Origin: an uncultured Anaerolineales bacterium
GTDB lineage: Bacteria > Chloroflexota > Anaerolineae > Anaerolineales > UBA11858
Direction: 5' to 3'
Assembly: GCA_964481465.1 (NCBI GenBank)
Contig: CAYZTL010000011.1
Location: 38,022 to 102,021, forward strand
DNA length: 64,000 nucleotides
Shown here: one piece after another, positions 13,501-57,687 of the stretch
Numbering within the stretch: the stretch's first letter is position 1
How the letters are laid out: each line of letters opens with the position of its first letter
Made by a program: the position numbers and the translations under genes
Notes under the pieces: generated by a model
Seen by the model: the letters and a program-made list of their open reading frames with translations, nothing else
Databases searched by the model: none
Told to the model about the DNA's origin: nothing

Positions 13501-13532
13501 GGTGGCACCTCCCATCAAGTCCAGTCTTTCGT

Positions 13533-14684
13533 TTAGTACCGCTTAATGGCAGCTATCTTTTTGGCCTGCTCGGGCATCTTCTGCTTTTCAAGGTCGAAGA
13601 CGACACCGCCATTCAACAATGTATGAGCAGCTGCAAAGCCAACCATCTCCCTGCTATCTTCATCCTCCGGATCTCTTTTAGTATATTGGTTTGACTCAGG
13701 GTCATAACTCCCCCAACTGTACTCCCCTTTGGCGGTCATCAGGGTATCGATCTGTCCATGATACGCAGCGGGTACAATTTCCCCAATTTCATGGGCAGCC
13801 TGATCCCGGACAAGCAGTGCTTTATACGAATCTTTAACTTTTTGGATTTCCTCTTCCAGAACCGGTTCCATCATGTCCCAAGCCAGCTGATGAAGTTCAT
13901 CAGGATCTAAAACATTGGGGTTCCCACGCTTGATACCCTCTAAGAGGCGGGGGTAGGAATTGATCTCTTCATAAATGGGGAGGAGATGTTCCGCTCCAAT
14001 CAGGAATAATGGGGCACTTTCACCTCCAATTACATCCAGCAAGCCCTGGTCTACTTTATTGAAAAAGCGGCGAATGTCCTCCTTTTCCTCTTCTTCGGGG
14101 AGGTGTTGATGGAAGACGCCTTTGTGACCTTTCTGGCTGGGAGAACTGGTATTGTGGAATCCAAGCCTTTTCTCTGGATCCTCATAAACGAGCGCTTCAT
14201 CCATATTTCTCGGCGTATCCCCAAGGTCAATTTCGCTGACCGTGAAACGGGTACCGGCAAGCAATCTCACATTGGAAAGGTCCAATACCAATAGATAAAA
14301 ATTCTCATTCTCCACGAACATCGGGATCAGGGGTCGAACATAATAACGGTCGCTGAGAAATACTTTCTCCTTAAAATTCAGAGGGAGACGATAGGCACGA
14401 AATTCAACGCCCTGATAAAAAACCGCCAATCCAGATGCCTGATTCCTCCAAAACGTATCATCGGTAATCAGATCTTTGAGAGGCTGGAGGTACTCTTCCA
14501 GCTCTGCTTTTCCCATATTCTGATCCTCTAATTCGTCCTCAATTTCCTGGAGGATATTTTTATAGCGGATGGGATTCTGCCTTGCTTCCTTCCCCGCCTG
14601 GATCGTGGGCATGTACAGGGAAATGCAATTTTTCCCTCGGAATTCCAACAATTCATTAAATGCCGCTAAAGGTAATAGATCCAT
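13533..14684 (-). CDS. Bacterial archaeo-eukaryotic release factor family (baeRF3/7-like) protein
   Basis: CISLYMPT, QNPIRYKN, FWRNQASGLAVF, YYVRPLIP, FFNKVDQGL, EIVPAAYHGQIDTL, AAAHTLLNGG.V, AAIKRY. Confidence 0.85.
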   Translation of the reverse strand: MDLLPLAAFNELLEFRGKNCISLYMPTIQAGKEARQNPIRYKNILQEIEDELEDQNMGKAELEEYLQPLKDLITDDTFWRNQASGLAVFYQGVEFRAYRLPLNFKEKVFLSDRYYVRPLIPMFVENENFYLLVLDLSNVRLLAGTRFTVSEIDLGDTPRNMDEALVYEDPEKRLGFHNTSSPSQKGHKGVFHQHLPEEEEKEDIRRFFNKVDQGLLDVIGGESAPLFLIGAEHLLPIYEEINSYPRLLEGIKRGNPNVLDPDELHQLAWDMMEPVLEEEIQKVKDSYKALLVRDQAAHEIGEIVPAAYHGQIDTLMTAKGEYSWGSYDPESNQYTKRDPEDEDSREMVGFAAAHTLLNGGVVFDLEKQKMPEQAKKIAAIKRY

Positions 14685-35029: not shown

Positions 35030-35437
35030 TCAGGCGAGCTGCGTGCGAATGCGCTTGACAGCTCGGTTCGTCACTCGGCGGTAATAATGGTCAGGAGGGA
35101 CTAAAGCAGCCAGGACCAAAGTGTCCTCCTCGTACGCGATACATCGACATACCAGGCAGAATCGGTTCTGATCCCGAATGGTAATTTCATTGATACCATT
35201 CATATCAAGTTGATTTTGGAGATCACGACTTAATCTCTGCAGCATAGCTACCAAAGCGCCAGTAGAGTCACCTTCCAAATCATCAGGCGCGACAGCGATA
35301 GGCAACCCTTCCCCGGTTGCCAAAACAGACTGGTGAAAGCCCCCTTCGGCATTCATTTTTTTCAAGATATCGACAAATGGCATTTCCTGGTCGTGATCTT
35401 CACCATGCATGTTACTTACCATCCATACCCTCGTCAA
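35030..35437 (-). CDS. Roadblock/LC7 domain protein
   Basis: LKKMNAEGGFHQSVLATGEGLPIA, ALVAML, NEITIRD, L.L.ALVP pattern. Confidence 0.85.
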   Translation of the reverse strand: MTRVWMVSNMHGEDHDQEMPFVDILKKMNAEGGFHQSVLATGEGLPIAVAPDDLEGDSTGALVAMLQRLSRDLQNQLDMNGINEITIRDQNRFCLVCRCIAYEEDTLVLAALVPPDHYYRRVTNRAVKRIRTQLA

Positions 35438-35450
35438 TCACCTTCGAAAT

Positions 35451-36035
35451 TTAGAATCTATGCTGCGTTTTGTTTACCACGCGATTGATGATCATTTTCA
35501 GCCCGTCTAAAACCCCGTCTCCCCGGATGGCGATCGTCTCAATGGTGGGAATCCCGTTCATCCCTAAATGCCCTTTGATCACATGGACGGGAACGATGTC
35601 TTCTAAATCCCGTTTATTGCACTGCAGAACCAGGGGCATTTTTTCAGGATCGAACCCCAAATCCCGTAAATCCCTTCTCATATCCCTCACTGCCTGCACA
35701 TTTTCGACCAGCCGTCGCCGCTGGGAGTCCGCAACAAAAACGACCCCATCTGACCCTTTCAGGACCAATTTTCGCGTCTGTTTGTAATACACTTGCCCGG
35801 GTACCGTGTATATGTTAAAGCGAGGTTTCAACCCCGCAATTTTCCCCAATTCTATTTGCATGTAATCGAAATAGAGCGTCCTGTCCTCCCGCGTTTTCAG
35901 CGAAACCAAATCCCCCCGTCGATTGGGATGTGTCTTCCTGTGAATATACTGCAAGGTGGTCGTTTTTCCGCTCAGGGAGGGACCATAATAGACGATTTTA
36001 AGGTTGATTTCCCTTAGTTTCCAATTTATGTACAT
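35451..36035 (-). CDS. mglA: MglA-family small GTPase
   Basis: INLKIVYYGPSLSGKTT, DRTLYFD, YTVPGQVYY..TR.LVL.G.DGVVFVADSQ, Q.NKRDL, A..G.GV. Confidence 0.95.
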   Translation of the reverse strand: MYINWKLREINLKIVYYGPSLSGKTTTLQYIHRKTHPNRRGDLVSLKTREDRTLYFDYMQIELGKIAGLKPRFNIYTVPGQVYYKQTRKLVLKGSDGVVFVADSQRRRLVENVQAVRDMRRDLRDLGFDPEKMPLVLQCNKRDLEDIVPVHVIKGHLGMNGIPTIETIAIRGDGVLDGLKMIINRVVNKTQHRF

Positions 36036-36044
36036 ACCTTTAAA

Positions 36045-36539
36045 TCAATCATCAGAAAATGCTTGCTCTAACTCTCTTGTCAGTCCCGACTTGAAATCTT
36101 CTGAATCAACCGGGTTGGGTTGGCCAATGACCTCTTCGAATTCAATGGTCAACTCCCGTAATTTTTCAACTGCCCGTTTGGCAAATAATCGCACCAAGCC
36201 GATAGGCGTCTCTGCCCTGAAGATGACAATCAAGATGAAACTTCCAGCGATATTATGGAGATAGATGCTCTTTTTATCCCCCTCATGAAAAAAGGATCCA
36301 TGCGGGTTATCCTCTCCGATTTGGCGGGTAAGTTCTCCCATCGCAGCCACATCACCAGCCGCTAAAGCGGCTACAGTGGAAGGCGTACCATCCACCAGTT
36401 GTCCCTGCGTGGCAATAACCTGCCCACTCACATCCGCTAAAATAATGCAATCCGTTCGCGTTTTCTGCTGCAAGTGGTCCAGGATATGGTCTATCTTCCC
36501 CATTAGATCTTCAGGCAAAGAAAGTCCATTTGACATCAT
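36045..36539 (-). CDS. mglB: MglB-like roadblock protein (GAP)
   Basis: ILADVSGQVI, AALAAGDVAA..EL...IGE, FFHEG.K.SIY, LIVIF....PIGLVRL. Confidence 0.9.
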   Translation of the reverse strand: MMSNGLSLPEDLMGKIDHILDHLQQKTRTDCIILADVSGQVIATQGQLVDGTPSTVAALAAGDVAAMGELTRQIGEDNPHGSFFHEGDKKSIYLHNIAGSFILIVIFRAETPIGLVRLFAKRAVEKLRELTIEFEEVIGQPNPVDSEDFKSGLTRELEQAFSDD

Positions 36540-36571
36540 TTGCTCCTCATCTACTGCTAATGCTTTCCCGC

Positions 36572-36600
36572 ATTATACCCTCAACCCGCTTCCAGGTGAA
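36572..36600 (-). promoter_or_regulatory. Internal sigma70 promoter for mglB-mglA-roadblock
   Basis: TTCACC-N17-TATAAT on the minus strand, ~30 nt upstream of the mglB RBS. Confidence 0.65.
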
Positions 36601-36675
36601 AGACAACTTCAATAACAGCTCCGATCTTTACTTCAGGGGTTTATTTCTTATCCCTTATCCGGTCCAGGAAACACT

Positions 36676-37458
36676 TCACTTTCGCAGCCTTTCGATTGCC
36701 GCCTTTAAACTGGTCCTCATTCGTTCAATGGATTCAGCCAACTCTTCCATTTCATCACCGGTATTAACTTCGATGGGCACATCCAAATCACCCCGGCTGA
36801 TGGAATCTGCGGCTTTACCAAGTTGAGAAACGGATCGCGTGATCCCCCGACTGATGATAAATGCCGAAACAACGGCTATGATGATGCTGACCCCGCCTAA
36901 TCCGATCGCGACATAGATCATAATATCTGTGTTCCTTTCCAGGGCGTCAGCTTTCCTGCTTAGTTTTTCCAGTTCTTTCTCATAGAACTGGTCGATAAGA
37001 GGGTTCAAATTATCCTCAGCAAAGCCGTCTGCTTCTCCCAATTCTCTTTTTATTTCCGATGTGTTCCCGGGATAATTTTCATAGACATAAATGGCATCAT
37101 CCAACATCTTTTTATGTTTTTTTCGGGCGGAGAGGATCTCACGCAATCCGGAGGGGATTTCTCCGGGCATGGCCTCAATGGCAGTCTCCCATTCTCCAAA
37201 CTTTTCCCGAGCTTGTTGCATTTTTTCCAATCCGCTGGGATCGCCATTAAGAACATATTGACCGATACCCACCCGTTCATTCAACAGCGCCTCTTTGCTT
37301 TGGTTTGTCAGCTGATTCACTTCCTGCAAATAAATCAACTCTTCCGTGAGGTTCTGAGATCGATTTAAACTGTAGATGCTAATCCCCGTCACGATAGCCA
37401 ATAAAAACACAACAATGCCAAACCCAATTGCCAATTTATTCGCGATTGATAATTTCAT
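36676..37458 (-). CDS. Membrane sensor: TM-helical bundle-TM-HAMP, no output domain
   Basis: MKLSIANKLAIGFG TM1, periplasmic-type helices, TM2, HAMP (ITRSV..L..AAD.IS.GDLDVPI....DE...LAESIERMR.SL), then stop. Confidence 0.88.
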   Translation of the reverse strand: MKLSIANKLAIGFGIVVFLLAIVTGISIYSLNRSQNLTEELIYLQEVNQLTNQSKEALLNERVGIGQYVLNGDPSGLEKMQQAREKFGEWETAIEAMPGEIPSGLREILSARKKHKKMLDDAIYVYENYPGNTSEIKRELGEADGFAEDNLNPLIDQFYEKELEKLSRKADALERNTDIMIYVAIGLGGVSIIIAVVSAFIISRGITRSVSQLGKAADSISRGDLDVPIEVNTGDEMEELAESIERMRTSLKAAIERLRK

Positions 37459-37528
37459 CGTTACCTCTCCTTTTGACTTGTCGTGGACGCTTCCATTCTC
37501 ATGAAAGGTGTGAAAGGTCGATCATAGA

Positions 37529-38323
37529 TTAAGAAGCACTTTTCAAGGTTTCCAGGATCACTTTTTGGAAATGAGCTCTTTTCTTGTCCTCTTCGATTTC
37601 CTCGCTTAACCGCTCTACAAGTTTAGCTGCCTTGTGCCTCGGGAATTGATCCCGTTGTTCACCCAGGGATTTTATTTCGTCCTCAATGATCACCGGCCCC
37701 AAAGGCCCTAATATATCTGTGAACTCATCCAACAAGGTTTCGAAAAATTCCCCGCTGACGGTTTCTGCAGTTGGTTTTTCTTTTTCCTCTCCAACTTCTA
37801 ATAACCCCGCCTTGGTCAAGCTGTACAGTATTTTGGCGATTTCAAACTCATTTCTACCCAATATTCTGGACAAATCCTCAATGCTCCGCTTCCCATTCAC
37901 TTGGGCCAAAACCTGCCATTCCGTAGGCTCCAAACTCACCGTCTCAGGGGACCCGGTTGGGGACAGTTTGAAGATAATGTCACTGGTCGGGATCATCTTT
38001 TTGATATCCCGCCACTCTTCATTTTTACGCGCAGCTTCCAGTAAGATCTGTTCGGTTGCCAGCTCGACCGACTCTTCAGGCGCATCAACATCCGGGGTAA
38101 AACTAAAACCCCCATCCATCCAACCCATCATGGTGTAAACCGCCCGCTCTCCCATTTGAGCGCCAGTAGCGGCATGGACCAAACTGCCTTGATGGAGGTA
38201 AATCTCACCCCGGATCCTACCCTGAGACAAGGATAATTTTCCCGTGCGGTCGCTGGAACTCAACATTTTTAATACGTCTATCAAAGGTAATTGCTCTAAA
38301 TTTCCTTTGAGAACTTCAGCCAT
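37529..38323 (-). CDS. DUF4388 domain protein with wHTH-like and helical C-terminal parts
   Basis: LKGNL..LPL.DVL.ML....TG.L.L, G.IYL..G.LVHA..G...GE.AV, EQILLEAARK.EEW, EWQVLA.VNG.RSI. Confidence 0.88.
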   Translation of the reverse strand: MAEVLKGNLEQLPLIDVLKMLSSSDRTGKLSLSQGRIRGEIYLHQGSLVHAATGAQMGERAVYTMMGWMDGGFSFTPDVDAPEESVELATEQILLEAARKNEEWRDIKKMIPTSDIIFKLSPTGSPETVSLEPTEWQVLAQVNGKRSIEDLSRILGRNEFEIAKILYSLTKAGLLEVGEEKEKPTAETVSGEFFETLLDEFTDILGPLGPVIIEDEIKSLGEQRDQFPRHKAAKLVERLSEEIEEDKKRAHFQKVILETLKSAS

Positions 38324-38413
38324 TCTTCTCCTCCTGATACGATTCCCTTGCCTGGATCCATTTAGAATCTACGCTAAAATAAATTCCATATCAAATAAAA
38401 CCCTCTCCTCTCT

Positions 38414-38818
38414 TTAACTAATAGCTTCTCCCTTCAATCTTTGTTTTTGATGGGTTTTCAAAAATTTTCGGACCCGAGGGTTCTCGTCCCACTGATTCAT
38501 GACCACATTCATGGTCAACCGAAGCAAAGAGATGTCCACTTCAAGCTGGCAAATAATGACCAACACCGCTTTCTTCAAATCCTTCAACACGACCCGTGAC
38601 CGCCCAAATACATATTCCACATCAGTATAATTATCACTTTCTGACTCTAGCGCAGCCAGGAATGGAAGGACCAGGTTTCCTATCTCCTGAATTTCATCAG
38701 GATGTAGATCTACCTTAGCCATCTCCCTTAATACATGACCTTGATTATCATATAACAGACATGCCTTAACATCTGCCACATCAAGGATTTCCACCAAACC
38801 CTCTTCCATTTGCTTCAA
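38414..38818 (-). CDS. Roadblock/longin-like small protein
   Basis: ILDVADVKACLLYDNQG.VL, V.Y.FG..RVVL..L...VLVIIC, D..LLRLT.NV pattern. Confidence 0.7.
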   Translation of the reverse strand: MKQMEEGLVEILDVADVKACLLYDNQGHVLREMAKVDLHPDEIQEIGNLVLPFLAALESESDNYTDVEYVFGRSRVVLKDLKKAVLVIICQLEVDISLLRLTMNVVMNQWDENPRVRKFLKTHQKQRLKGEAIS

Positions 38819-38828
38819 CCTCCACTCT

Positions 38829-39833
38829 TTATCCAGGTAGGTGATCGCTGATCCCCAATTCCTTGACGGCGGTCAACCGTTCCTCTTTCACCTCCGCTAA
38901 ATGATCCATGACGATGGTTTCCAATCCAATGCCGGGATGTTCTGAATCGAGATGTTGAATGGTTTCCCGCAAACAAACCCCTACCCCCTCACTCAGCCGC
39001 TTCTCCGGTTCTCCGCGGTATGTGATCTCGCCCTCCTGGTATAGGAATTTCGCCGCAAAAGGATCTAAAAATGGATACTCGTCGGCATGATCGATCATCA
39101 CTTCCTTTAGTGTGTTCAGAAAATGCCCTTCTTCTAAATTGTCATCCATTACGGATTCAACTGCTCCAATGATGTCACCCCAAACCTCTAATATCTGGGG
39201 AAATTGATCGCTGATCCGGATTTCTTCTCCTTCAGCAAAAGATTCTTCTATGGCGGCCCTGTAAACGTTAAATACCGCGCCTTGCGACGAAGAAGCATCC
39301 ATGATGCGATGCAGCATATTAACCCCCGAAATTTCTTCCCCACCTGTTTTCAGCAAACAGTTTATGATCTCACCGGACAAAAAATAAATATAAGCTTTTC
39401 GAGAACCCCCACCGATGCTGACTTCCATATATCCGGTTTGATCCTCATTTCGCAATTTGTTGATCAACCCATCTATACTCGTGAACTCTGTGGTCAGGTC
39501 TTTATAAAGGAGTTCGCTTTGGACGACGCTAGACAGCACAGTCACCATCTCTTCCGTCAAAGTATATACACTAATGGAACCACCTTTCTCTTTAGCCCTT
39601 TCCTTCAAGCGGTTCACCGCATCTTTTCCCGTCGCCCTTTCTCCGTCGATCACTTCCACGGCATTGACGACATTTCCATTATCAATAAACAGATTCCCCT
39701 CATATTCCCAGAAGCTGACCTTCACTGATCCTGTGAAGTTATTCGCACTCAGATCAGAGAGCAGTTCGCCAAAATTTGTGAACGAAGTATTCATATTCTC
39801 ATAGATGACTTCTTCTGTTGGATAAATCATCAT
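38829..39833 (-). CDS. Tandem DUF2226/DUF4388-like domain protein
   Basis: Two repeats of L..L......TG.V.VS.....G..F...G.V.N. Confidence 0.7.
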   Translation of the reverse strand: MMIYPTEEVIYENMNTSFTNFGELLSDLSANNFTGSVKVSFWEYEGNLFIDNGNVVNAVEVIDGERATGKDAVNRLKERAKEKGGSISVYTLTEEMVTVLSSVVQSELLYKDLTTEFTSIDGLINKLRNEDQTGYMEVSIGGGSRKAYIYFLSGEIINCLLKTGGEEISGVNMLHRIMDASSSQGAVFNVYRAAIEESFAEGEEIRISDQFPQILEVWGDIIGAVESVMDDNLEEGHFLNTLKEVMIDHADEYPFLDPFAAKFLYQEGEITYRGEPEKRLSEGVGVCLRETIQHLDSEHPGIGLETIVMDHLAEVKEERLTAVKELGISDHLPG

Positions 39834-39848
39834 TGCTCTCCTTGATTA

Positions 39849-40949
39849 TCACGATTGATAACGCAGAACCGTCGCTCGCACCTCATGGGCCAACAAATCA
39901 GCCTGGGCTCGTTTCGAAACCCATAGGTAGATAATGTCATCCTGATCTCGGAGAACGATCTCCTTTCCATCCCGCTTTTTTAATATCACCCGCATAACTT
40001 GATCGTCATCGAGTGTGCGACCTAACTTCTCGGCTTGTTGGATGATATAGCGGGCGATCACTCCTGCTTTACCAACATCTCCATCCCGTTCATTTGCAAG
40101 GATGCTGCCATTCTGGGAGCAGATCAAGACCTCATGTACACCCTCAATCCTCAATATTGCCTTTGTGATCCGCTCACCGAGATCGACCTCATTATCTGCA
40201 GTCCCTTCCCCCTTTTCCCTCTCGACCTTAAAACTCGCTTCTTGCCAATCGACATCCGCCGGTGCCTGACCCTCATCAATGCGCCGCATCCCCTCTAAGA
40301 TCAATCCCGACCACCCAGCCTCAATCGTCCTTTGCGGGGGAGAGATCCCCATATCCAAGGAAAACGTCCCCTGCTCCCACTCCAAGAGGTGATATACAGC
40401 ATCTTCCCCATAGAGATTCCCCACCTCAGCATGGACGACTCGACCCCCGTCGAAAAATATCCTCCCTTCCTGTCCTTGGCGCCGAAGGTGAAGAAGACCG
40501 ACTATTCGTTCTTCACAATTCATCTGGATGATGCTTGCCAAACTCATTGTGCGCAAATCGCCCTGGAATGCGCTTCCGCTTGACTCCTTCTCCGTTAGCC
40601 GGCGAAATACCGGCAGGAGTGTTTCTACCCGAAGGGGTTTCTCCATAAATTCAGAAGCGCCCATCCGCAGCGCTTTAACGACATGTTCTTTTGTGCCGTA
40701 GTCCGTGTAAAGAATTACCTTTGCGCGAGAATCGTATGACTTTAACAGGGAGAGGATTTCGAATCCATTGACCGCACTCTCGTCCAGGGCTACTAAAACG
40801 ATATCAATATCCCTCGTCTTGTACATTTCCAGGGCTTTTTCTTTTTCCCCCGCTTTATAGACATGGAAATCTCTTCCCTCTAACGCTGTGATAAGAGATC
40901 GCAATGAATTTATTTCATCATCCACGACGAGAATGCTGCTTGATTCCAC
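39849..40949 (-). CDS. Receiver-DUF4388-roadblock fusion protein
   Basis: ILVVDDE...KP receiver (Ala at the Asp site); FQGDL..MSL.SIIQM.C..., G.IFF..G.VVHA, LILEGMRRIDE; C-terminal IEGV..VLI.S.NG.IL. Confidence 0.85.
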   Translation of the reverse strand: MESSSILVVDDEINSLRSLITALEGRDFHVYKAGEKEKALEMYKTRDIDIVLVALDESAVNGFEILSLLKSYDSRAKVILYTDYGTKEHVVKALRMGASEFMEKPLRVETLLPVFRRLTEKESSGSAFQGDLRTMSLASIIQMNCEERIVGLLHLRRQGQEGRIFFDGGRVVHAEVGNLYGEDAVYHLLEWEQGTFSLDMGISPPQRTIEAGWSGLILEGMRRIDEGQAPADVDWQEASFKVEREKGEGTADNEVDLGERITKAILRIEGVHEVLICSQNGSILANERDGDVGKAGVIARYIIQQAEKLGRTLDDDQVMRVILKKRDGKEIVLRDQDDIIYLWVSKRAQADLLAHEVRATVLRYQS

Positions 40950-48041: not shown

Positions 48042-48205
48042 CAGGTTAGTATACAGTACTTCCATTTCTATCACAGCCAGGTCTTGCTCCTTTGCGGAAA
48101 AGATCTTGCTGCTCTGATCCGTTTCATTGATTGGTAAACCAAAATAAATCAACATATAGATGGAAAACCCCGGCCTATCCTTGGGGTTTTTTCTGGAGGT
48201 GGATG

Positions 48206-49474
48206 ATGGCTGGCAATCGCTATACGAAACTCCTTTTGGTTGGACTGACCCTCTTCTTTGCCATCCTGGCTTGCAATATACCCCAAGAAGAACTCTCTGC
48301 ATCGCCGGTCACAGAAGAAACCCGACCAAGCGAAGGAGGGGAAGCAAACGAGGAAACACTCACTCCCGATGAAGACCAAGGGGCTCCGCTGACCTCTACT
48401 CCTTCCCTCACACCTACGATCACTCTTACTCCCACGATCACCCTCACCAGCACCCCAGAGGTGCCCATGGCCAGTGTGACCATGAACACGAACTGCCGTT
48501 CGGGGCCCGGTAAGGATTACCAGAAATTGGGGGTTCTCCTGGTGAGAGAGGAAACCGAGATCGTTGGGATCGGCAGCACGGGATATTACTACATCGTCCG
48601 CAATCCCGATAAGCCAAATCAGGTATGTTGGTTGTGGGATAAATATGTAGAGGTACACGGGAACATCGAGGGGATTCCAAAGATGACCCCGCCACCCAGC
48701 CCAACTCCTATCCCGACTATCTCCTATCAGATCACCCCGGAAAGACTTATCAGCTGCGGTCCAACTGAATACATGGTGTATTGGGTCGGAAACGACGGGG
48801 AAACGGCTTTAGAATCAGCGGAGGTGAAAATCAAGAACCTCGATACCTCGACGACCATCTTCGGGCCCGGTCACACCGATGCCCCTTTCACTCCTAACGT
48901 TACCTCCTGCCCACCGGGATTTGACACCCTGGGACCGGGCGGCGCAGCTTATATGGCTATTATGGTTAATCCCCCACCTAACGCTTTAGAAAAAATCCGC
49001 GCAACCGTGAAAATTTGCTCCCAGAATGGGTTAGGGGAACCCTGCTTGACCAAGCAGGTGGATTGGGAGAATGTTGCCATCTCCGATCGTAACAAAAAAA
49101 CGGATATCACCCCCATCGCTCCCCAAGATGTGCTGGACAAGGTCGCTTCTCTGCCCATCTCATCCTGGAGCTACCAGTACGATGATCCATCCATCCGTCA
49201 CATCGGTCCTATGGCCCAGGACTTCTACCGTCTTTTCCAGGTAGGTGACAATGACACGCTCATCCATGGCATAGACGCATACGGTGTTTCCTTGGCTGCC
49301 ATCCAGGCCTTAAACGAACACATGGTGGATATGGAATCTCGTCTGACAGCTCTAGAAAAACAAACCTCCCCGTCCTTAACCCCACAAGTCCCTTGGTGGA
49401 CCTTACTTTTCGTTCTATGCGCAGGTTTGTGTTTAGGTGCCCTTGGATACCGCTGGTGGAGTCAACGATCCTAA
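48206..49474 (+). CDS. Lipoprotein with SH3-like domain, Peptidase_S74/ICA autoprocessing chaperone domain, coiled coil and C-terminal TM anchor
   Basis: Lipobox ILAC; NCRSGPG.DY..LG.L; SDRNKK, HIGPMAQDF, GVSLAAIQAL; TM WWTLLFVLCAGLCLGALGY plus RWWSQRS. GGAGGT RBS. Confidence 0.88.
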   Translation: MAGNRYTKLLLVGLTLFFAILACNIPQEELSASPVTEETRPSEGGEANEETLTPDEDQGAPLTSTPSLTPTITLTPTITLTSTPEVPMASVTMNTNCRSGPGKDYQKLGVLLVREETEIVGIGSTGYYYIVRNPDKPNQVCWLWDKYVEVHGNIEGIPKMTPPPSPTPIPTISYQITPERLISCGPTEYMVYWVGNDGETALESAEVKIKNLDTSTTIFGPGHTDAPFTPNVTSCPPGFDTLGPGGAAYMAIMVNPPPNALEKIRATVKICSQNGLGEPCLTKQVDWENVAISDRNKKTDITPIAPQDVLDKVASLPISSWSYQYDDPSIRHIGPMAQDFYRLFQVGDNDTLIHGIDAYGVSLAAIQALNEHMVDMESRLTALEKQTSPSLTPQVPWWTLLFVLCAGLCLGALGYRWWSQRS

Positions 49475-49567: not shown

Positions 49568-50353
49568 TCAATCAGACAGCACACCCAGGATCTCTTTGGC
49601 TTCTTTGCGCACGATATAAGCCCGGTCCCACTCAAAATTATCCAAGCCAAGTACTTTTCGGCACAGGTTTTTTAATTCCTGGGTTTCCTCTTTATCAAGG
49701 TGATCATAGCGGGCTAGTTTCCCGTAACTGCGCACGGCTTTCGCTCGCACCCCGGCTTTGGGATCGGACAGGTTCTCACCAATCCGATCCAAGATAGCCT
49801 TTTTTGCTTTCAAAGACAGGTCTTGGGGAGGGATAGCCTCCACGAATTTTCCCAGAACCCGGGTGGCTGTATCCCGCAATTCAGGATGGCCTGCCTGGGA
49901 GGCTTCCAATGCGATATCCAGAGCGCGAATGATTTGGGGAGAATCAATTTTACCTAGCGCGTAGAGAACGAAAATCCGCTGTTCAGGTTCCTTTGCAGAA
50001 CGGTATGCCTCGATCAAAGGCTCAATGGCAGATTCTCCTATCCGCCCCATCGCGTGACCAATGGCTAACTGGGCTTTTAAATCCCCAGCTCCAAGGCTGT
50101 CGACCAGGATGGGAATGACTCGCTCCTCAAAATCCGCTACCAATGTGATCGCCTCATCGACCACAGGCAACAAATCAGGTCGATCTAGCAAATCGATGAA
50201 AAACAAAGACTCCAGCATCCCTACTACCTCATTTAAATCATCCTCTGCCAAATCAGGCATTCTCTCCCGAATTAATGCCAGCCCCCGATGGATATCTTCC
50301 GCGGAGTTGCTTGCCAATAACGTTTTTATCTCCTCATATTCCCTTTTGGACAT
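49568..50353 (-). CDS. HEAT/PBS-lyase repeat protein
   Basis: Repeated A..ALG.IG...I.PL helical pairs (IGHAMGRIG, LYALGKI, TRVLGK, VRSYGKL). Confidence 0.85.
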   Translation of the reverse strand: MSKREYEEIKTLLASNSAEDIHRGLALIRERMPDLAEDDLNEVVGMLESLFFIDLLDRPDLLPVVDEAITLVADFEERVIPILVDSLGAGDLKAQLAIGHAMGRIGESAIEPLIEAYRSAKEPEQRIFVLYALGKIDSPQIIRALDIALEASQAGHPELRDTATRVLGKFVEAIPPQDLSLKAKKAILDRIGENLSDPKAGVRAKAVRSYGKLARYDHLDKEETQELKNLCRKVLGLDNFEWDRAYIVRKEAKEILGVLSD

Positions 50354-50626: not shown

Positions 50627-53600
50627 ATGAGTATCCCTGTCACCCGAACCAGAATAATCCTTCCCCGTCGGCGTCCAGACCTCCTTTCCCGCGAACGTCT
50701 GCTGGACATGTTAGACGATTTACTGGATTACAAGCTGATCTTGATCTCTGCTCCTGCTGGTTACGGGAAGACATCCCTCTTAGTGGATCTCGCTCATCAG
50801 GTTGAATACCCTGTCTGCTGGTACTCCTTGGACTCTCTCGATCAGGATTTCCAACGCTTTCTAGCACATTTCATATCCGCGATTCAACACCGTTTTCCGG
50901 ACTTCGGAGAAAATTCACTTTCCGTCCTGGAAAACGTGTCCCCTAATCAAATGGACCACAGCCGCCTGGTGAGGACAATCGTCAACGACGTTTTTGAACA
51001 CATTGATGAGCACTTCGCCATGGTGTTGGATGATTATCATCTGGTGGAAGATAACGAAGACATCAACCTTTTCATGAACCGTTTGGTGCAGGAAATGGAT
51101 GAAAACTTCCACCAGGTCATCTCCTCCCGCACTTTACTCAGCCTGCCCGATTTGCCGCTCATGGTCGGCAGATCCCAGGTCAAAGGGCTCAGCTTTGAGG
51201 AATTGTCTTTCCGCCCCGACGAAATCCAAGCGCTGATGCAGGAAAAATACCACCAGGTGATCTCCGAACAACAAGCCCAGAGAATCGCGGAACGTACTGA
51301 CGGCTGGGTCACCGGTCTGCTGCTCTCCGCGGAGACCATGTGGAAAGGGTTGACCGGTCAAACCCGCGTCACCCTGGCCTCGGGCGTGGATCTATATGAC
51401 TATTTAGCTCAGCAGGTGCTGGACCAGCAGTCTCCCGAACTGCGTTCCTTCCTGCTACGTTCTTCCCTCCTTGAAGAATTCAACGCCCCACTCTGTGAAG
51501 CGATCTTGGGAGACCCGCCCCAGGGAGAAAGCTGGCCAAGCATGCTCGCCAAGGTCATGCAGTATAACCTCTTCGTCCAGCCTTTGGAGGATGAAGGCAC
51601 CTGGATTCGCTACAATCACCTCTTCCGGGATTTCCTGCAAGAACGCCTGACCATTGAACGGCCGGAGGAAAAAGAGCGCTTACTGCGCCGGATGATCGAG
51701 GTCTATACGGAGCGGGAAGAGTGGGAGAAGGCGTACTTTGTCTGCCAGCAATTGGGGGATCACGAAACCACGGCAACGCTGGTTGAACAAGCTGGTATTC
51801 CTATGATGATTAAAGGAAGAATTGCAACCCTAGCTAATTGGATTGACACTATCCCACAAGCAACGTTAAACAAGCATCCAAATATCGTTGCCCGTCGTGG
51901 AGCAGCATCTATGATGCTAGGAAATGTTGAGGAAGGATCAACCTTTTTAAATAAGGCAGAAGAATCATTAAGAGGGACAGACTCTGTTGATAAACTAAAC
52001 CTCTCTCGTACATTGGTTTGGCAATCTACCATACATAGATTCCAGGGTAATTATAAAAAATCTCTCTCCTACGCAAATGAAGTCTTAAATATGATCCATG
52101 AAAAAGGAGAAGATATAACAAGAATTAAGGCTGAAGCATTTAGAGAAATGGGACTGGGATATTATCGACTTGGGAAGGTTAATCAAGCCCTCGATCCATT
52201 AATAAAAGCAATAAATCTGTATTCGTCGATAGGTGAAGAAAAAGATGAAGCTTTAGTCAACATGGATATCGGACTCACCTCCATGTATGTTGGCAAATAC
52301 AAAACAGCGTCCACCCATTATCAAAACGCACTACAGCTCTGGCAAAAAAACAACAATATCACACAGCTAGCAAATCTATTAAACAACATGGGGGTTTTAG
52401 CCAATCTCCAGGGTGAGTATACACAGGCTAAAGAATATTTTCAAAAAGCTCTTAAACGTGCCCAAGAAAGCGGATACCGTCGCACAGAAGGGTTTGTCCT
52501 CACCAGCTTGGGGGATTTATACGCGGACCTGGAAGCTTACACGGCGGTGAAGGAAAATTACGCTCAAGCCCAAGAGATCGCGCAGGAAATAGGCGATCAG
52601 TACTTACTAAATTATCTAGACATCACCCAAGCTTCTCTTTCTAGAAAACTCCAAAAACACGTCCGGGCCCACAACCTGCTGGACGATGTCGAACCGTACA
52701 TCGAAGAGTCCGGGTCCAGTTATGAGAGCGGTCTCCACAATCTGGAACGCGGGAAACTCTACCTTTCGGAGGGAAAAGCTGAGAAAGCGGTCCTGCTCCT
52801 GGAAACAGCGGTTCGAGAGTTCGAGAGTGGGGGCCAGCGTGTCGAAAGCGCCCAAGCGCACCTCTACCTTGCCCAGGCCTACCAGGATGAGGGAAGCCAA
52901 GAATCCGCAGTCCATCACATCAGCAGAGCCTTTCAAACGGCTTCCATCCTGCAAAGCCTGCACCCCCTCATCCACAGTGGAAGGGAGGTGAAGCCAGCGC
53001 TGCGCGCAGCGCAAAGTACTTCCCAAATCGGGGATCAGGTATCTCAGCTCTTGGACGCCATCCGCGAATTCGAAAAGGAACTGCCATCCTTGCAGTATGC
53101 CATTTATAAAGATGAAGACGAATTGGAACTCTTCATCCCCGGACTGAGCATCCAGGCGCTGGGGCGCGCCCAGGTCAAGCGCCACGGAAAAGTGGTCACC
53201 GCTTCGGAATTCACAAACCAAAGAGCCGTGCGGGAACTCTTCTACTTCCTCCTTGTCCATCCGGACGGCCTGCGCAAGAGGGCCATCGGCCAGGCTCTGT
53301 GGCCTAACAGCGCACCGGAAGAGCTTAAACGCCAGTTCAAAAACGCGGTCTACCGTCTGCGGCGGGCTCTGGGCAAAGAAGTGGTCCTATACGACCAGGA
53401 AGAAAAGCGCTACCGCTTCAACTGGGGGCTAGACTACCGCTACGATGTGGAGGACTTCCGGACCCACCTCTCCCGGGCCCATAACGCAGAAACGGAAGAA
53501 GAGCTCAAAACGGCTCTGGAAAACGCCATCACCCTTTACCGCCACCCTTATCTGCCCCGGGTCTCTCATTTATGGGTGGAGCCCATCCGCAACCGCCTCT

Positions 53601-53872
53601 TCCGGCAGTATAAAGACGCCGTGCTCACCCTGGCAGAGCTCCACCTGGATGCTGGGGATTTCGAAAAATCGGTTCAAACCTGCCAGCGTTTACTTATCAT
53701 TGATCCCTGCCAGGAAAGGGCCCACCGCCTGTCGATGCGTGCCCATGCCGCTTTGGGCGATCGGGCTGCCGTCGCCCGCCAATACCAATCCTGCCGGAAA
53801 GCCCTTTCCCAAGACCTGGATACCTCCCCTTCCCCGGAAACGGAAGAGCTTTACCGCCGTTTAATGGATTGA
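50627..53872 (+). CDS. MalT-like STAND ATPase-TPR regulator with C-terminal wHTH-BTAD
   Basis: L.RERLL..L, SAPAGYGKT, WYSLD..D, VLDDYH, GWVTGL; TPR array; L.IQALG...V, F...VYRLRRALG, YDVEDF, DP..E.AHR..MR. Confidence 0.92.
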   Translation: MSIPVTRTRIILPRRRPDLLSRERLLDMLDDLLDYKLILISAPAGYGKTSLLVDLAHQVEYPVCWYSLDSLDQDFQRFLAHFISAIQHRFPDFGENSLSVLENVSPNQMDHSRLVRTIVNDVFEHIDEHFAMVLDDYHLVEDNEDINLFMNRLVQEMDENFHQVISSRTLLSLPDLPLMVGRSQVKGLSFEELSFRPDEIQALMQEKYHQVISEQQAQRIAERTDGWVTGLLLSAETMWKGLTGQTRVTLASGVDLYDYLAQQVLDQQSPELRSFLLRSSLLEEFNAPLCEAILGDPPQGESWPSMLAKVMQYNLFVQPLEDEGTWIRYNHLFRDFLQERLTIERPEEKERLLRRMIEVYTEREEWEKAYFVCQQLGDHETTATLVEQAGIPMMIKGRIATLANWIDTIPQATLNKHPNIVARRGAASMMLGNVEEGSTFLNKAEESLRGTDSVDKLNLSRTLVWQSTIHRFQGNYKKSLSYANEVLNMIHEKGEDITRIKAEAFREMGLGYYRLGKVNQALDPLIKAINLYSSIGEEKDEALVNMDIGLTSMYVGKYKTASTHYQNALQLWQKNNNITQLANLLNNMGVLANLQGEYTQAKEYFQKALKRAQESGYRRTEGFVLTSLGDLYADLEAYTAVKENYAQAQEIAQEIGDQYLLNYLDITQASLSRKLQKHVRAHNLLDDVEPYIEESGSSYESGLHNLERGKLYLSEGKAEKAVLLLETAVREFESGGQRVESAQAHLYLAQAYQDEGSQESAVHHISRAFQTASILQSLHPLIHSGREVKPALRAAQSTSQIGDQVSQLLDAIREFEKELPSLQYAIYKDEDELELFIPGLSIQALGRAQVKRHGKVVTASEFTNQRAVRELFYFLLVHPDGLRKRAIGQALWPNSAPEELKRQFKNAVYRLRRALGKEVVLYDQEEKRYRFNWGLDYRYDVEDFRTHLSRAHNAETEEELKTALENAITLYRHPYLPRVSHLWVEPIRNRLFRQYKDAVLTLAELHLDAGDFEKSVQTCQRLLIIDPCQERAHRLSMRAHAALGDRAAVARQYQSCRKALSQDLDTSPSPETEELYRRLMD

Positions 53873-54450: not shown

Positions 54451-54804
54451 ATGAACACCTATTCGATGTACTCTCCCCGTTTGGATACGACAGTAGCCAC
54501 GAGACCGGATCAACCCAGTGAGGGCCTCAACCGCTTGATTGCTGCCGCTGTCATCAACCAAAACTTCTGTGATTCGCTGCTCAACACACCCGAATTAGCC
54601 TTGGAAAACGGCTACTTCGGAGAGCAATTCAATCTTGAGGATCACGAAGTGGGTCTAATCCTATCTATCGAGGCGGATAATTTAAGTGATTTTGCCAACC
54701 AGGTCGTTGAACGAGGACATGAAGAATTTGAATACCGACGAGTCAGTGGAAGCAGCTGCTGGGTCCCAGCGGAACCAGCCATGGTCGTCATGGATCCGAA
54801 CTGA
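54451..54804 (+). CDS. Small protein resembling NHLP-clan (Os1348/Franean1_4349-like) leader domains
   Basis: LNRLIAAAVINQNFCDSLLNTPELALENGY.G..F.L...E..LI.SI; AAGGAG RBS. Confidence 0.7.
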   Translation: MNTYSMYSPRLDTTVATRPDQPSEGLNRLIAAAVINQNFCDSLLNTPELALENGYFGEQFNLEDHEVGLILSIEADNLSDFANQVVERGHEEFEYRRVSGSSCWVPAEPAMVVMDPN

Positions 54805-56755
54805 CTTTGACACCCTTTCATATGATCATGGGGATCGCTCCCCGTCCATCCCTGTTGCAATCTGGATGATTGACCGCCAGGGTCAATTCACCCTGTCAGA
54901 AGGTCATGGCCTTGCTGACTTGGGTTTGGAACCGGGTGAAGTGGTTGGCAAATCCATCTACGACCTTTACGCAGATGTCCCCCAGATTTTAGAGTGTGTC
55001 AAGCGGGCCCTAAACGGGGAAACAGTGGAAGCTACAATCCAGGCGGAAGATACACACTGGAACGCGTATTATTACCCCACCCGGAATGCCAAGGGGCGGA
55101 TTACTGGAGTTATCGGCGTGGCTTTTAACAACTCCAAAGAACACGAACTACTACGGAGACAAGAGTTGTTAATGGATCTCGCGGCCACGTTGCGCTCCAT
55201 AAACACCCGAAAAGAAATGCCCGCCAAAGTCCTTGAGAAATTGGTGGATTTGTTCCATGCCCAGGGAGCCATGATCCTCTCTCGTTCTCCATCCAATCAC
55301 GGTTTGGAAATCGAAGAATGTTCAGGGATAGAGGATCTCCTGCAGGGAAAAACAATCAATTTAGATGATTACCCCTGGTTGCTTGATAGATCTGAACAAA
55401 TCATATCCACCGCTCAACCCCATCTTGATGAGCAGATCTCAGAGCAGCTCCCCTTTATCCATGGCGCTCAGGCCATTGCCGGTGTCCCCATTTCTGGGAG
55501 AGATAAGATCATTGGGGTGATCTGGGTTTTGCGCGATCAGCCGCTCAACAAAATGGAATTGGGTTTGTTGACTGAAGTGGGTGAGATCACAGGCATTTCT
55601 TTCCATCAAGCAGAACAATACGAACAAACGCAACGGCGTCTCCATCGCCTTTCTGCCCTGCATGCCATCGATCAAGCGATCACGGGAACGTTTGATCTTA
55701 ACGTCACGCTCAATGTCATTCTGGATCAGGTCGTCACCCAATTAGAGGTGGACGCGGCTGACATTTTCCTTTATAAGCCAAAAACCCACAACCTCGAGTT
55801 CGGAGAGGGACGAGGATTCAATCACACTGACAGTTCCCACCAGCAAGTCAGAGAACGAGTGGGACTGTTATGGCAAGTAGCCCGCGAACGAGCCTTGGTT
55901 AACATCCCCAACCTGCCCCACCGCACACAGACCTTTGTTCGCCGCTCATTGATTGAGGAGGAAGGGTTTGTTACTTACTTTGGGATCCCTTTAATCGCCA
56001 AAGGTGAGATCAAAGGGGTCTTGGAGGTTTTCCATCGTAAGTCTCTTGAAATCGACAAAGAATGGATAAGCTTCTTTAAGACACTGGCCAATCAAGCAGC
56101 TATCGCGATTGATAATGCAGCCCTCTTCGAAGACCTGCGAAAGTCGAACATGAAACTCGATCTGGCTTATCACTCCACCCTTGAAGGCTGGGTCCATGCC
56201 TTGGATTTGCGTGATGAGGAAAGCCAGGGACACACGAAACGGGTAACGCAGCATACGCTGCGTTTGGCCAAAGCTATGGGGATAAACGGGGAGGATTTGG
56301 TACACATCCGCCGCGGGGCCCTGCTCCATGATATCGGAAAGCTGGCAATCTCAGATGACATTCTCCACAAAAAAGGCTCATTGACTGAAGAGGAATGGGA
56401 ACAGATCAAAAAACACCCCCTTTACGCTCAGGAAATGCTGTCTGAAATTGAATTCTTACATCCTGCCTTGGATATCCCGTACTGCCATCATGAAAAATGG
56501 GACGGTTCGGGGTACCCGCGTGGATTAAAAGGAGAAAGGATCCCTCTTGCAGCTCGTATATTCGCCGTCATCGATGTCTGGGATTCATTAACCAACGACC
56601 GACCCTACCGCAACGCCTGGTCTGAGAAAGAAGCCATCCAATACATTTTGGAACATATCGGAACGCACTTCGATCCCAACGTGGTAGAAACCTGGATGGA
56701 AGTGTTTGACATCGAACCTCCCGAGGAGGAAATCTTAGAAGACCTCTTTCGATAA
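54719..56755 (+). CDS. PAS-GAF-GAF-HD-GYP phosphodiesterase (start uncertain)
   Basis: PAS (IDRQG.F..SEG.GL..LG...VVGKS), GAF domains, RDEES.GH..RV, GALLHDIGK, HHEKWDGSGYP, DRPYR. Confidence 0.9.
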   Translation: MKNLNTDESVEAAAGSQRNQPWSSWIRTDFDTLSYDHGDRSPSIPVAIWMIDRQGQFTLSEGHGLADLGLEPGEVVGKSIYDLYADVPQILECVKRALNGETVEATIQAEDTHWNAYYYPTRNAKGRITGVIGVAFNNSKEHELLRRQELLMDLAATLRSINTRKEMPAKVLEKLVDLFHAQGAMILSRSPSNHGLEIEECSGIEDLLQGKTINLDDYPWLLDRSEQIISTAQPHLDEQISEQLPFIHGAQAIAGVPISGRDKIIGVIWVLRDQPLNKMELGLLTEVGEITGISFHQAEQYEQTQRRLHRLSALHAIDQAITGTFDLNVTLNVILDQVVTQLEVDAADIFLYKPKTHNLEFGEGRGFNHTDSSHQQVRERVGLLWQVARERALVNIPNLPHRTQTFVRRSLIEEEGFVTYFGIPLIAKGEIKGVLEVFHRKSLEIDKEWISFFKTLANQAAIAIDNAALFEDLRKSNMKLDLAYHSTLEGWVHALDLRDEESQGHTKRVTQHTLRLAKAMGINGEDLVHIRRGALLHDIGKLAISDDILHKKGSLTEEEWEQIKKHPLYAQEMLSEIEFLHPALDIPYCHHEKWDGSGYPRGLKGERIPLAARIFAVIDVWDSLTNDRPYRNAWSEKEAIQYILEHIGTHFDPNVVETWMEVFDIEPPEEEILEDLFR

Positions 56756-56844: not shown

Positions 56845-57687
56845 ATGATTAGACAAAAAACATCCACCCCAAAGAAATTCCAGGAAAGGAGTTCAGCGTA
56901 CTCTTCTCTCAAAATATCCCTTATCTACGTGATCCTTGGCATTGCCTGGATACTGTTCTCAGATACCATCGCTCTCGTCATTTTTCAACAGGATGTTGAC
57001 CGCCTCTCATCCATCCAAACCTTTAAAGGAACGCTGTACGTGGTTACGACCGCGGTGGTCCTTTTCATCCTCATGGAGCGAGATTTCCGAAAGATCAATC
57101 AATCCCAGCAAGTGTTGAAGGATAGTTATCACGCCACGCTAGGAGGTTGGGTCCAAGCGCTCCACCTGCGTGATGAAGAAACGCAAGAACATACACAGCG
57201 CGTGATCGAAGATTGTATAAAACTGGCAAAAGCAATGAAGGTAGACGAGAAATCGCTCATTCATATCCGCCGTGGAGCGCTTCTCCATGACATTGGCAAG
57301 TTGGGCATTTCCGATGACATATTGATGAAATCGGGTGCGCTTACCCCCGAAGAAAGGAAAATCATTGAGTTGCACCCTGTGTTTGCCCGGGATTTGATCC
57401 GTGATATCGAATTTCTCCAACCTGCGTTAGCTATCCCCTACTGCCATCACGAGAAATGGGATGGCAGTGGATACCCCCAAGGATTGCAGGGCGAGGAAAT
57501 CCCCCTTGAAGCGCGGATCTTTGCCGTCATCGATGTCTGGGATGCCTTGACCAGTGATCGCCCTTACCGCGATGCCTGGACCGACAAAGAAGCGGAACGG
57601 TATATCCTGGAACAATCCGGAAAACACTTTGATCCCCAGGTAGTGGATACCTGGCAGAAAGTTTTCCAGATTTCCAACCACACATAG
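56845..57687 (+). CDS. Membrane-bound HD-GYP phosphodiesterase
   Basis: Two TMs (WILFSD, QTFKG), RDEETQEH..RV, GALLHDIGK, HHEKWDGSGYP.GL.GEEIP, DRPYR. Confidence 0.92.
   Translation: MIRQKTSTPKKFQERSSAYSSLKISLIYVILGIAWILFSDTIALVIFQQDVDRLSSIQTFKGTLYVVTTAVVLFILMERDFRKINQSQQVLKDSYHATLGGWVQALHLRDEETQEHTQRVIEDCIKLAKAMKVDEKSLIHIRRGALLHDIGKLGISDDILMKSGALTPEERKIIELHPVFARDLIRDIEFLQPALAIPYCHHEKWDGSGYPQGLQGEEIPLEARIFAVIDVWDALTSDRPYRDAWTDKEAERYILEQSGKHFDPQVVDTWQKVFQISNHT

Follow-up and report, generated by a model that had tools for sequence, protein, structure and literature searches.

A five-gene receptor, roadblock and PATAN core joined to an MglB–MglA–roadblock triad in an uncultured Anaerolineales bacterium

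Introduction

Roadblock dimers are established regulatory platforms for small GTPases, as in MglB, CvnB/MfpD and the Ragulator. To our knowledge, signal input to a bacterial small GTPase is understood in detail for one system only, Frz–RomR–MglAB of Myxococcus, and for the conservons it is only starting to be worked out. Here, we analyze a cluster of eight genes, g1 to g8, from an uncultured Anaerolineales bacterium, which encodes an MglA-type GTPase, MglB, further roadblock proteins, PATAN (DUF4388) domains and a HAMP receptor. The cluster lies on a stretch of 64,000 nucleotides (contig CAYZTL010000011.1 of assembly GCA_964481465.1, positions 38,022–102,021 of the forward strand), referred to below as the window, and positions are given in window coordinates unless a locus is named.

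In the conservons, the roadblock protein CvnB acts as GAP (GTPase-activating protein) and the DUF742 protein as GEF (guanine nucleotide exchange factor), and the systems regulate antibiotic production and resistance (PMC13343842). In Synechocystis, proteins combining a PATAN and a receiver (REC) domain bind the type IV pilus motor (10.1101/2021.06.11.447907). Homologues of MglA and MglB are often encoded beside PATAN genes (10.1101/2021.06.11.447907; PMC4316618), an adjacency also recorded by Wuichet and Sogaard-Andersen (2014) and, as cited in PMC4316618, by Makarova et al. (2006). The cluster studied here had been read, in a prediction made from the letters of the window, as an uncharacterized signaling operon with several roadblock domains arranged around one GTPase.

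Results

On the minus strand, the eight genes follow one another head to tail in the list of open reading frames (ORFs; Table 1), as had been predicted, and each of the original domain calls proved correct when examined with Pfam, family profiles, and AlphaFold2 (AF2) models searched by Foldseek. Four metagenome-assembled genomes (MAGs; L003, L005, L009 and L010) share both the gene set and its order. Genes flanking the L010 copy are entirely different from those in the window, which sets the boundaries of the cluster at g1 and g8; conservation of the neighborhood, chosen beforehand as a check on the prediction, was thereby borne out among Anaerolineales MAGs whose flanks differ. The same eight genes are also carried by about 30 further species-level MAGs, with the HAMP gene placed after g8 in four of them. 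Identity of the window proteins to those of L003 runs from 94.5% for MglB (g6), with 85% for MglA (g7), down to 47% for g3. Values of dN/dS between L003 and L005 were 0.04–0.33 across the cluster, showing purifying selection on each of the eight genes.

For a wider survey, one genome per GTDB species was scanned using alignments of the g2 family, which was chosen as the query because the diverse g3 alignment was too variable. Relatives of g2 were found in 241 and 202 species genomes in two scans, and a scan with MglA as a single protein returned 7 loci only. Iterative domain mapping was carried out on 102 non-redundant loci, and counts were taken from the 57 that retained at least 5–6 kb on both sides. 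The C-terminal roadblock domain of g1 (g1C), g2, g3, the C-terminal part of g4 (g4C) and the transmembrane HAMP protein g5 were each present in 56 of these 57 loci, and PATAN was present in all 57. The original prediction had placed the GTPase at the center, a view that had to be given up, because MglA and MglB lie near the core in only 30 and 32 loci, respectively. Counts for REC (31) follow those of MglA and MglB, and g8 was seen in 24. The invariant unit is thus not the GTPase but a five-gene core made up of transmembrane HAMP protein, roadblock, tandem PATAN, roadblock and PATAN–winged helix protein, with all five parts present together in 56 of the 57 loci, and the putative window operon is best seen as a composite of this core (g1–g5) and an MglB–MglA–roadblock triad (g6–g8).

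Core carriers were found in Chloroflexota (Anaerolineae, Dehalococcoidia/Tepidiformaceae and Thermoflexus), Thermodesulfobacteriota, NC10, KSB1 and Caldithrix, all of them MAGs except Tepidiforma flava. Several MAG taxon labels that were probably coarse or the result of mis-binning were not relied on, among them that of L033 ('Nitrosomonadaceae'), those of L049 and L050 ('Pseudomonadota') and those of the MFD bins ('Chloroflexia'). L033 is an Anaerolineales-type cluster on a 6.9-kb contig, and in L049 and L050 the genes are arranged as in the Thermodesulfobacteriota loci; mis-binning or mislabeling is likely in all three.

The loci could be sorted by architecture. Type A, that of the window and of the Anaerolineales, has the order REC–PATAN–roadblock, g2, g3, PATAN–winged helix, HAMP, MglB, MglA and roadblock. 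In type B, a REC–roadblock fusion and MglA lie upstream of the core. Type C has a REC–Ras fusion upstream, MglB–MglA–MglB–g8 downstream, and hybrid kinases preceding; the fusion in L069 (5914–6819; Pfam Ras 7e-40) immediately precedes the core, and such fusions next to the core, together with MglB–MglA–MglB–roadblock, were also found in L057, L059, L063, L070 and L073. Type D consists only of the HAMP receptor, a stand-alone roadblock, g2, g3 and the PATAN–winged helix protein, flanked by housekeeping genes, and is carried by Dehalococcoidia/Tepidiformaceae, Thermoflexus, Ca. Amarobacter, some Anaerolineaceae and the cultured Tepidiforma flava YIM 72310. Type E, from Thermodesulfobacteriota/Syntrophobacterales MAGs, reads g3, PATAN–winged helix, HAMP, REC–PATAN–roadblock, g2, MglB, MglA; it is followed in the same direction by genes for a CheW-domain protein, a PAS histidine kinase, a sigma54 response regulator, PilM, PilN, PilO and PilP, and preceded by PilY1. 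Types E and F hold the GTPase genes in other orders, and KSB1, Caldithrix and NC10 show further permutations of the cluster. Across phyla, GTPases are joined to the core in at least five different arrangements, and the REC and PATAN extensions of g1 occur solely in loci with a GTPase. The converse case, a triad of MglB, MglA and a g8-like protein separate from the core, is seen in the Cytophagia-type (Bacteroidota-type) loci L004 and L007, where the g8-like gene immediately follows MglA.

One type E locus departs from its relatives. In L046 (9035–9806; Syntrophobacterales bin204 chromosome, CP070774.1), MglB is followed only by an ORF of 105 amino acids (aa) where related loci encode a 207-aa MglA, and opposite-strand genes take the place of the downstream pil genes; the copy may have decayed or been rearranged.

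For g1, Pfam identified a REC domain (1.2e-17, aa 6–112), a DUF4388/PATAN domain (1.3e-23, aa 129–226) and a weak Robl_LC7 match (0.007). A 41-sequence profile of the C-terminal domain (aa ~250–366) matched the roadblock structures 7f8f (1e-8) and 7f8m (5e-8), as well as the mycobacterial roadblock Rv3364c (2.4e-5) and CvnB5 (3leq, 0.014), and Asgard roadblocks were the top matches of the g1C and g8 profiles alike. At the phospho-acceptor column of REC, the window protein has Ala54 (DIVLVALDES), where 31 of 34 aligned orthologues have Asp and the two closest relatives Ser; it retains the Asp of the acidic pocket, the conserved Thr and the Lys-Pro pair. With Ala at this position, the window REC is a pseudo-receiver, and phosphorylation input through it appears unlikely in this organism. 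Since the acceptor Asp is lost and no kinase gene adjoins the cluster in the window, the domain probably serves as a phosphorylation-independent interaction domain. Eleven type A loci that have the acceptor Asp (L017, L022, L023, L025, L029, L030, L033, L035, L037, L038 and L043) carry, upstream of g1 on the opposite strand, a divergent gene pair that is absent from the window and encodes a presumed histidine kinase (a HAMP-containing protein of ~527 aa) and a response regulator of 216 aa.

The tandem-PATAN protein g2, which serves as a marker for the core, showed two weak DUF4388 stretches in Pfam, and its family members carry precomputed PF14332 and PF09987 assignments; in public databases they are named 'hypothetical protein'. 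Its AF2 model (pLDDT 86.8) contains two similar alpha/beta repeats at aa 9–114 and 120–192, followed by a helical domain at aa 195–325. A Foldseek search of this model against the PDB gave no credible match, the best being sliding clamps at E 2.7e-3 and a TM-score of 0.12, and PATAN appears to be a domain for which no structure has been solved.

Immediately downstream of g2 in every case stands g3, a protein with no Pfam match at all. When 1.84 billion proteins were searched exhaustively, its family came to 51 representatives; the family profile matches solved roadblocks (7yh1 at 4e-4, LC7b and LAMTOR2), and 6 of 40 members match Robl_LC7. The AF2 model (pLDDT 91.8) has the a-b-b-a-b-b-b-a topology of a roadblock, superposes on LAMTOR2 with TM-scores of 0.70–0.72, and has as its top Foldseek match the Thermus thermophilus MglB 1j3w (probability 1.0, TM-score 0.66–0.73). 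Profile–profile comparison of g3, g8 and MglB by hhalign, using alignments of 4–6 sequences, gave co-linear alignments with non-significant scores. From the profile matches of g1C, g3 and g8, together with the model of g3, all four predicted roadblock domains (g1C, g3, g6 and g8) are judged genuine, g3 included.

The remaining core proteins are g4 and g5. Pfam placed DUF4388 (1.2e-23, aa 6–105) and the winged helix-turn-helix family HTH_27 (3.5e-5) in g4, and a helical C-terminal DUF8082 (PF26309) assignment was available precomputed. The winged helix spans aa ~130–185, and the g4C family profile matches winged helix domains of SNF8 and MarR (MarR-type at ~1e-3), so that the family's winged helix appears closest to generic MarR/SNF8-type domains. 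Two of 25 g4-family members match DUF742, with a best value of 8e-4, and the family member P0337 scores 26.5 bits (E 6e-6), which is borderline against the cut-off of 27. For g5, Pfam identified a 4HB_MCP/TarH-type N-terminal part and a HAMP domain (1.2e-14), and hydropathy placed transmembrane segments at aa ~5–30 and 178–205 with a periplasmic four-helix bundle between them. The protein contains neither DHp nor HATPase, and its Pfam and NCBIfam matches cover only the transmembrane–HAMP parts of kinases. Because the chain stops 8 residues past HAMP, g5 is predicted to be a receptor that has no output domain.

Within the triad, g7 matches Myxococcus xanthus MglA (6hjh) at 9.5e-58 over residues 2–188 in a PDB search, and its Pfam matches are to Arf/Ras-type GTPases. 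It contains the P-loop GPSLSGKTT (GxxxxGKT), the switch-I DRT with its Arg and Thr, TVPGQ and NKRD. In the G3 motif (TxxGQ), Thr replaces Asp and the catalytic Gln is kept, and EDRTLYFD aligns with TDRTLFFD of M. xanthus, in which R53 and T54 are the intrinsic Arg finger and Thr. Among the 43 MglA proteins encoded in the clusters, motif positions are kept in 35–43; the P-loop G, GKT and TVPGQ are present in all 43, as are the switch-I Arg and Thr, in agreement with the intact GTPase of the original prediction. The protein is nearest to the M. xanthus and Thermus MglA and keeps the Group-1 catalytic residues; GTP binding and MglB-stimulated hydrolysis are predicted.

Directly upstream of mglA, g6 matches M. 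xanthus MglB (6h5b) at 1.3e-20 over residues 6–139 and Robl_LC7 at 9.2e-9, and bears a conserved acidic C-terminal extension. Against the NCBIfam MglB equivalog NF052242 it spans positions 1–152 of 161 and scores 63.5 bits, below the cut-off of 200; beyond this sub-threshold match, NCBIfam gave no specific name for any of the eight proteins. The third member, g8, matches Robl_LC7 at 2.1e-7, and its family profile matches the Asgard roadblock 7f8f at 4.2e-5.

Intergenic gaps along the cluster from g1 to g8 are 15, 10, 90, 70, 136, 9 and 13 nucleotides (nt). A public gene caller places some starts a few codons later, which leaves 333, 131, 163 and 130 aa for g2, g3, g6 and g8, respectively. The highest-scoring sigma70-like site of the region falls in the 136-nt gap before mglB, that is, at the junction of the two modules, and such sites occur in the region only at chance level. 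Upstream of g1, a 285-nt gap is followed by addA-like and addB-like helicase/nuclease genes, and ychF lies downstream of g8 in convergent orientation. The host setting is one of microbial-mat and hypersaline-lake metagenomes, and the nearest genomes are Anaerolineales MAGs. A role in defense was considered and rejected, as PADLOC gave just generic winged helix-turn-helix and REC similarities.

Table 1. Positions of the cluster genes and of other features of the window (TM, transmembrane segment)
Feature	Position	Strand	Length (aa)	Evidence
g1, REC–PATAN/DUF4388–roadblock	39849–40949	-	366	Pfam; family profile vs PDB
g2, tandem PATAN/DUF2226-like with helical C terminus	38829–39833	-	334 (333 from second Met)	Pfam; AF2
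g3, divergent roadblock	38414–38818	-	134 (131 from Met4)	AF2; Foldseek; family profile
g4, PATAN–winged helix–DUF8082	37529–38323	-	264	Pfam; precomputed PF26309
g5, TM1–4HB_MCP/TarH-like–TM2–HAMP	36676–37458	-	260	Pfam; hydropathy
sigma70-like site, TTCACC-17-TATAAT	36572–36600	-		10/12 in sequence scan
g6, MglB, roadblock GAP homologue	36045–36539	-		PDB 6h5b; Robl_LC7
g7, MglA, Group-1-like Ras-superfamily GTPase	35451–36035	-		PDB 6hjh; motifs
g8, roadblock	35030–35437	-	135 (130 from ATG at 35422)	Robl_LC7; family profile
HEAT-repeat protein	49568–50353	-	261	Pfam HEAT_2
Peptidase_S74 protein	48131–49474	+	447	Peptidase_S74 6.7e-12
baeRF-type protein	13533–14684	-	383	baeRF families 3, 7 and 6 (1.6e-40)
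AI-2E family transporter	12412–13518	-		
HD-GYP-type protein with PAS and GAF	54686–56755	+		HD_5
HD-GYP-type protein	56845–57687	+		HD_5
BTAD-TPR regulator	50627–53872			
TPR/HHH_3 (ComEA-like) protein	23–4627	+	1534	Pfam

One further gene recurs around type A clusters. Orthologues of the window HEAT-repeat protein (~260–270 aa; 53% identity to L018:14776–15597) are encoded downstream of g8 in the same direction in 18 type A loci, directly after g8 in some; in the window, the gene is displaced to a place 8.6 kb upstream of the cluster, beyond addA and addB. The HEAT protein could be a ninth component or an effector of MglA, or the arrangement could be conserved synteny only.

Several other genes of the window were recorded. 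The Peptidase_S74 protein is encoded between addB and the HEAT gene; this domain is the intramolecular chaperone of endosialidase and tail-fiber proteins, and the protein may be phage-derived or a surface fiber. The two HD-GYP-type proteins are encoded by adjacent genes, which suggests turnover of c-di-GMP near the large BTAD-TPR regulator. The baeRF gene adjoins that of the AI-2E family transporter, and the 1534-aa protein has N-terminal TPR and C-terminal HHH_3 motifs, the remainder giving no Pfam match.

Discussion

The two conserved modules may act together as a membrane-to-small-GTPase signaling system that recalls the conservons or the Ragulator, a proposal to which we give an even chance and which remains the best reading of the cluster, as the original prediction had it. 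It is put forward from the roadblock platforms, the likeness of the g4 family to DUF742, which though borderline adds support, and the GAP and GEF roles assigned in conservons. Gene content, folds, conservation, modularity and genomic links were observed directly; the physical interactions and the output of the scheme are ones that we infer. In module 1, the core, the HAMP-only transmembrane sensor g5 would work with two roadblock domains, the tandem-PATAN protein g2 as scaffold and the PATAN–winged helix protein g4; the C terminus of g1 and g3 probably form a heterodimeric roadblock platform. A periplasmic signal would be read by the four-helix bundle of g5 and relayed via HAMP to the cytoplasmic roadblock/PATAN assembly (g1C:g3, g2 and g4), which would recruit MglA to the membrane or set its nucleotide state, with g4 as a candidate exchange factor or effector adaptor. 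In module 2, made up of MglB, MglA and the accessory roadblock g8, MglB would be the GAP, possibly tuned by g8, and MglA-GTP would position or activate a machine of the envelope, for which type IV pili are the likeliest candidate. The output is probably the polarity of such a surface machine, because of the type E context and the known biology of MglA and of PATAN–REC proteins.

A number of observations weigh against this proposal. In roughly half of the well-flanked core loci, neither MglA nor MglB is encoded within 7 kb, and the core therefore need not use an adjacent GTPase. Promoter and terminator sites counted in a sequence scan of the region were at chance level. The locus was seen in DNA metagenomes (microbial mat and hypersaline lake) only and in none of the RNA-seq runs, and the 64-kb window contains no type IV pilus or gliding genes. 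Pfam comparison of the window g4 with DUF742 gave no match, and its winged helix could bind DNA instead.

A broader reading, which we hold as possible but somewhat doubtful, is that the core is a multi-phylum signaling platform, a non-actinobacterial cousin of the conservons and a prokaryotic counterpart of the Ragulator, that would assemble at the membrane and set the location or nucleotide state of whichever GTPase is plugged in. That GTPase would be MglA in the window and a Ras-like REC fusion in other loci; genomes that have the core only would use a distal one.

A rival reading is that two independent systems happen to be neighbors, a GTPase-free core, for example a PATAN-based scaffold, and a separate polarity switch formed by the triad. 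Consistent with it, the core stands alone in type D, including the cultured Tepidiforma flava, and the triad stands alone in the Cytophagia-type loci L004 and L007, and the widest gap of the cluster (136 nt), with its 10/12 promoter-like site at 36600–36572, separates the modules. We nevertheless regard such independence as unlikely. Across phyla, independent attachment of GTPases to the core has produced at least five arrangements, including adjoining REC–Ras and REC–roadblock fusions, roadblock domains are established GTPase platforms, and g1 gains its REC and PATAN extensions only where a GTPase is present; this repeated attachment, with REC fusions alongside, argues for functional coupling of core and GTPase rather than accidental adjacency.

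The output could also be gene expression or physiology, as in a conservon-like G-protein system in which the g4 winged helix binds DNA or MglA acts on transcription or stress, as in Streptomyces and Mycobacterium. Component types correspond (sensor, roadblock, DUF742-like winged helix and MglA-family GTPase), the type D gene order mirrors cvnA-B-C, the g4C profile matches MarR-type regulators at ~1e-3, and conservons govern antibiotic production and resistance (PMC13343842). The GTPase, however, is a close MglA homologue in which the Group-1 Arg finger is retained, and it is accompanied by a bona fide MglB; a kinase domain is missing from g5, type E clusters stand among type IV pilus genes, and MfpC, the CvnC homologue of the mycobacterial Mfp system, is reported to be a GEF and not to bind DNA. 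Taken together, these points make such an output rather improbable. A PatA-like controller of division or patterning in multicellular filaments is very improbable: PATAN was defined in PatA, which is found at division sites in Anabaena, and many Anaerolineales are filamentous, but g1 has the domain order reversed and the acceptor lost, the neighborhood contains no division genes, and the core occurs in lineages not known as filaments (Tepidiforma and Thermodesulfobacteriota MAGs). The cell-patterning role suggested by the original prediction finds no support, the core being present in NC10 and KSB1 as well, and the sole informative genomic context is that of the pil genes.

Set beside the Myxococcus pathway, the cluster is a compact, conserved and modular alternative, in which there is a genetic tie between a transmembrane HAMP receptor, roadblock platforms and PATAN scaffolds and, in many lineages, MglA/MglB or Ras-like GTPases too. 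Should the core prove to be a platform that regulates GTPases, it would carry the roadblock-platform principle, known from the Ragulator, MglB and CvnB, into a new setting with a membrane receptor, give a biochemical role to PATAN and DUF8082, and hint at how the abundant, poorly studied Chloroflexota control surface behavior. The comparative set offers natural experiments, since the core may stand by itself, be combined with MglAB or with Ras, or be embedded among pil genes, and Tepidiforma flava is a cultured entry point.

Comparison with known systems

The nearest likeness of the triad is to the MglA/MglB switch of M. xanthus, T. thermophilus and Bdellovibrio, to which g7 and g6 are homologous and adjacent in the same mglB–mglA order. 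The extra roadblock paralogues recall MglC, but MglC was not among the matches to the sequence profiles of g3, g8 and g1C, and the g3 model matches its structure (7ct3) just at Foldseek rank 48. Unlike the known switch, the window pair has as neighbors a HAMP sensor and three proteins that contain PATAN, along with two further roadblock domains. No RomR, RomX or RomY architecture, as in the M. xanthus module, was seen among the eight proteins, in an analysis that included no search aimed at these three.

With the conservons (AGPS), the cluster shares its component types, namely a HAMP membrane sensor, roadblock, a small winged helix protein (of borderline likeness, in the g4 family, to the DUF742 protein CvnC) and an MglA-family GTPase. 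The order sensor–roadblock–winged helix in type D is that of cvnA-B-C, other genes intervening, and a CvnB-type roadblock has its counterpart in the four roadblock domains of the window. CvnA, however, is a kinase with DHp and HATPase, both of which g5 lacks, and CvnD is a Group 2 GTPase of a system confined to Actinomycetota, whereas the window GTPase is Group-1-like, has its own MglB, and belongs to a cluster found in Chloroflexota and other phyla. Two extra roadblocks and the PATAN domains are further differences, as is the absence of the GTPase from half of the loci. Classification of the cluster as a conservon thus fails on the missing kinase, the Group-1-like GTPase and hosts outside Actinomycetota.

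The eukaryotic Ragulator–Rag (LAMTOR) and the Asgard roadblock/GTPase pairs likewise combine several roadblock domains, a small GTPase and a membrane anchor. The window differs in having no Rag-type GTPase–roadblock fusion and no LAMTOR1, and its membrane link would be the HAMP receptor; the resemblance is best treated as an analogy of architecture only.

PATAN proteins form the last group. DUF4388/PATAN occurs in g1, g2 and g4 as it does in PatA, PixG/PixH/PixE and M. xanthus SgnC, but in the window it is fused to roadblock or to winged helix–DUF8082. PatA has an N-terminal PATAN followed by a phosphorylatable C-terminal REC, whereas g1 has the reverse order, REC–PATAN–roadblock, with Ala as acceptor residue, and assignment of g1 as a PatA-type regulator fails on both counts. 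A search of the accessible literature found no paper describing the HAMP/roadblock/tandem-PATAN/roadblock/PATAN–winged helix core, DUF8082 or the g2 family, and core proteins carry public names such as 'hypothetical' or 'DUF4388/DUF2226 domain-containing'. The original description of the pathway as uncharacterized accordingly holds for the five-gene core, which appears undescribed, and not for the PATAN–MglA/MglB neighborhood, noted already in 2006 and 2014. The pil context of the type E loci, for its part, parallels the binding of PATAN–REC proteins to PilB and PilC.

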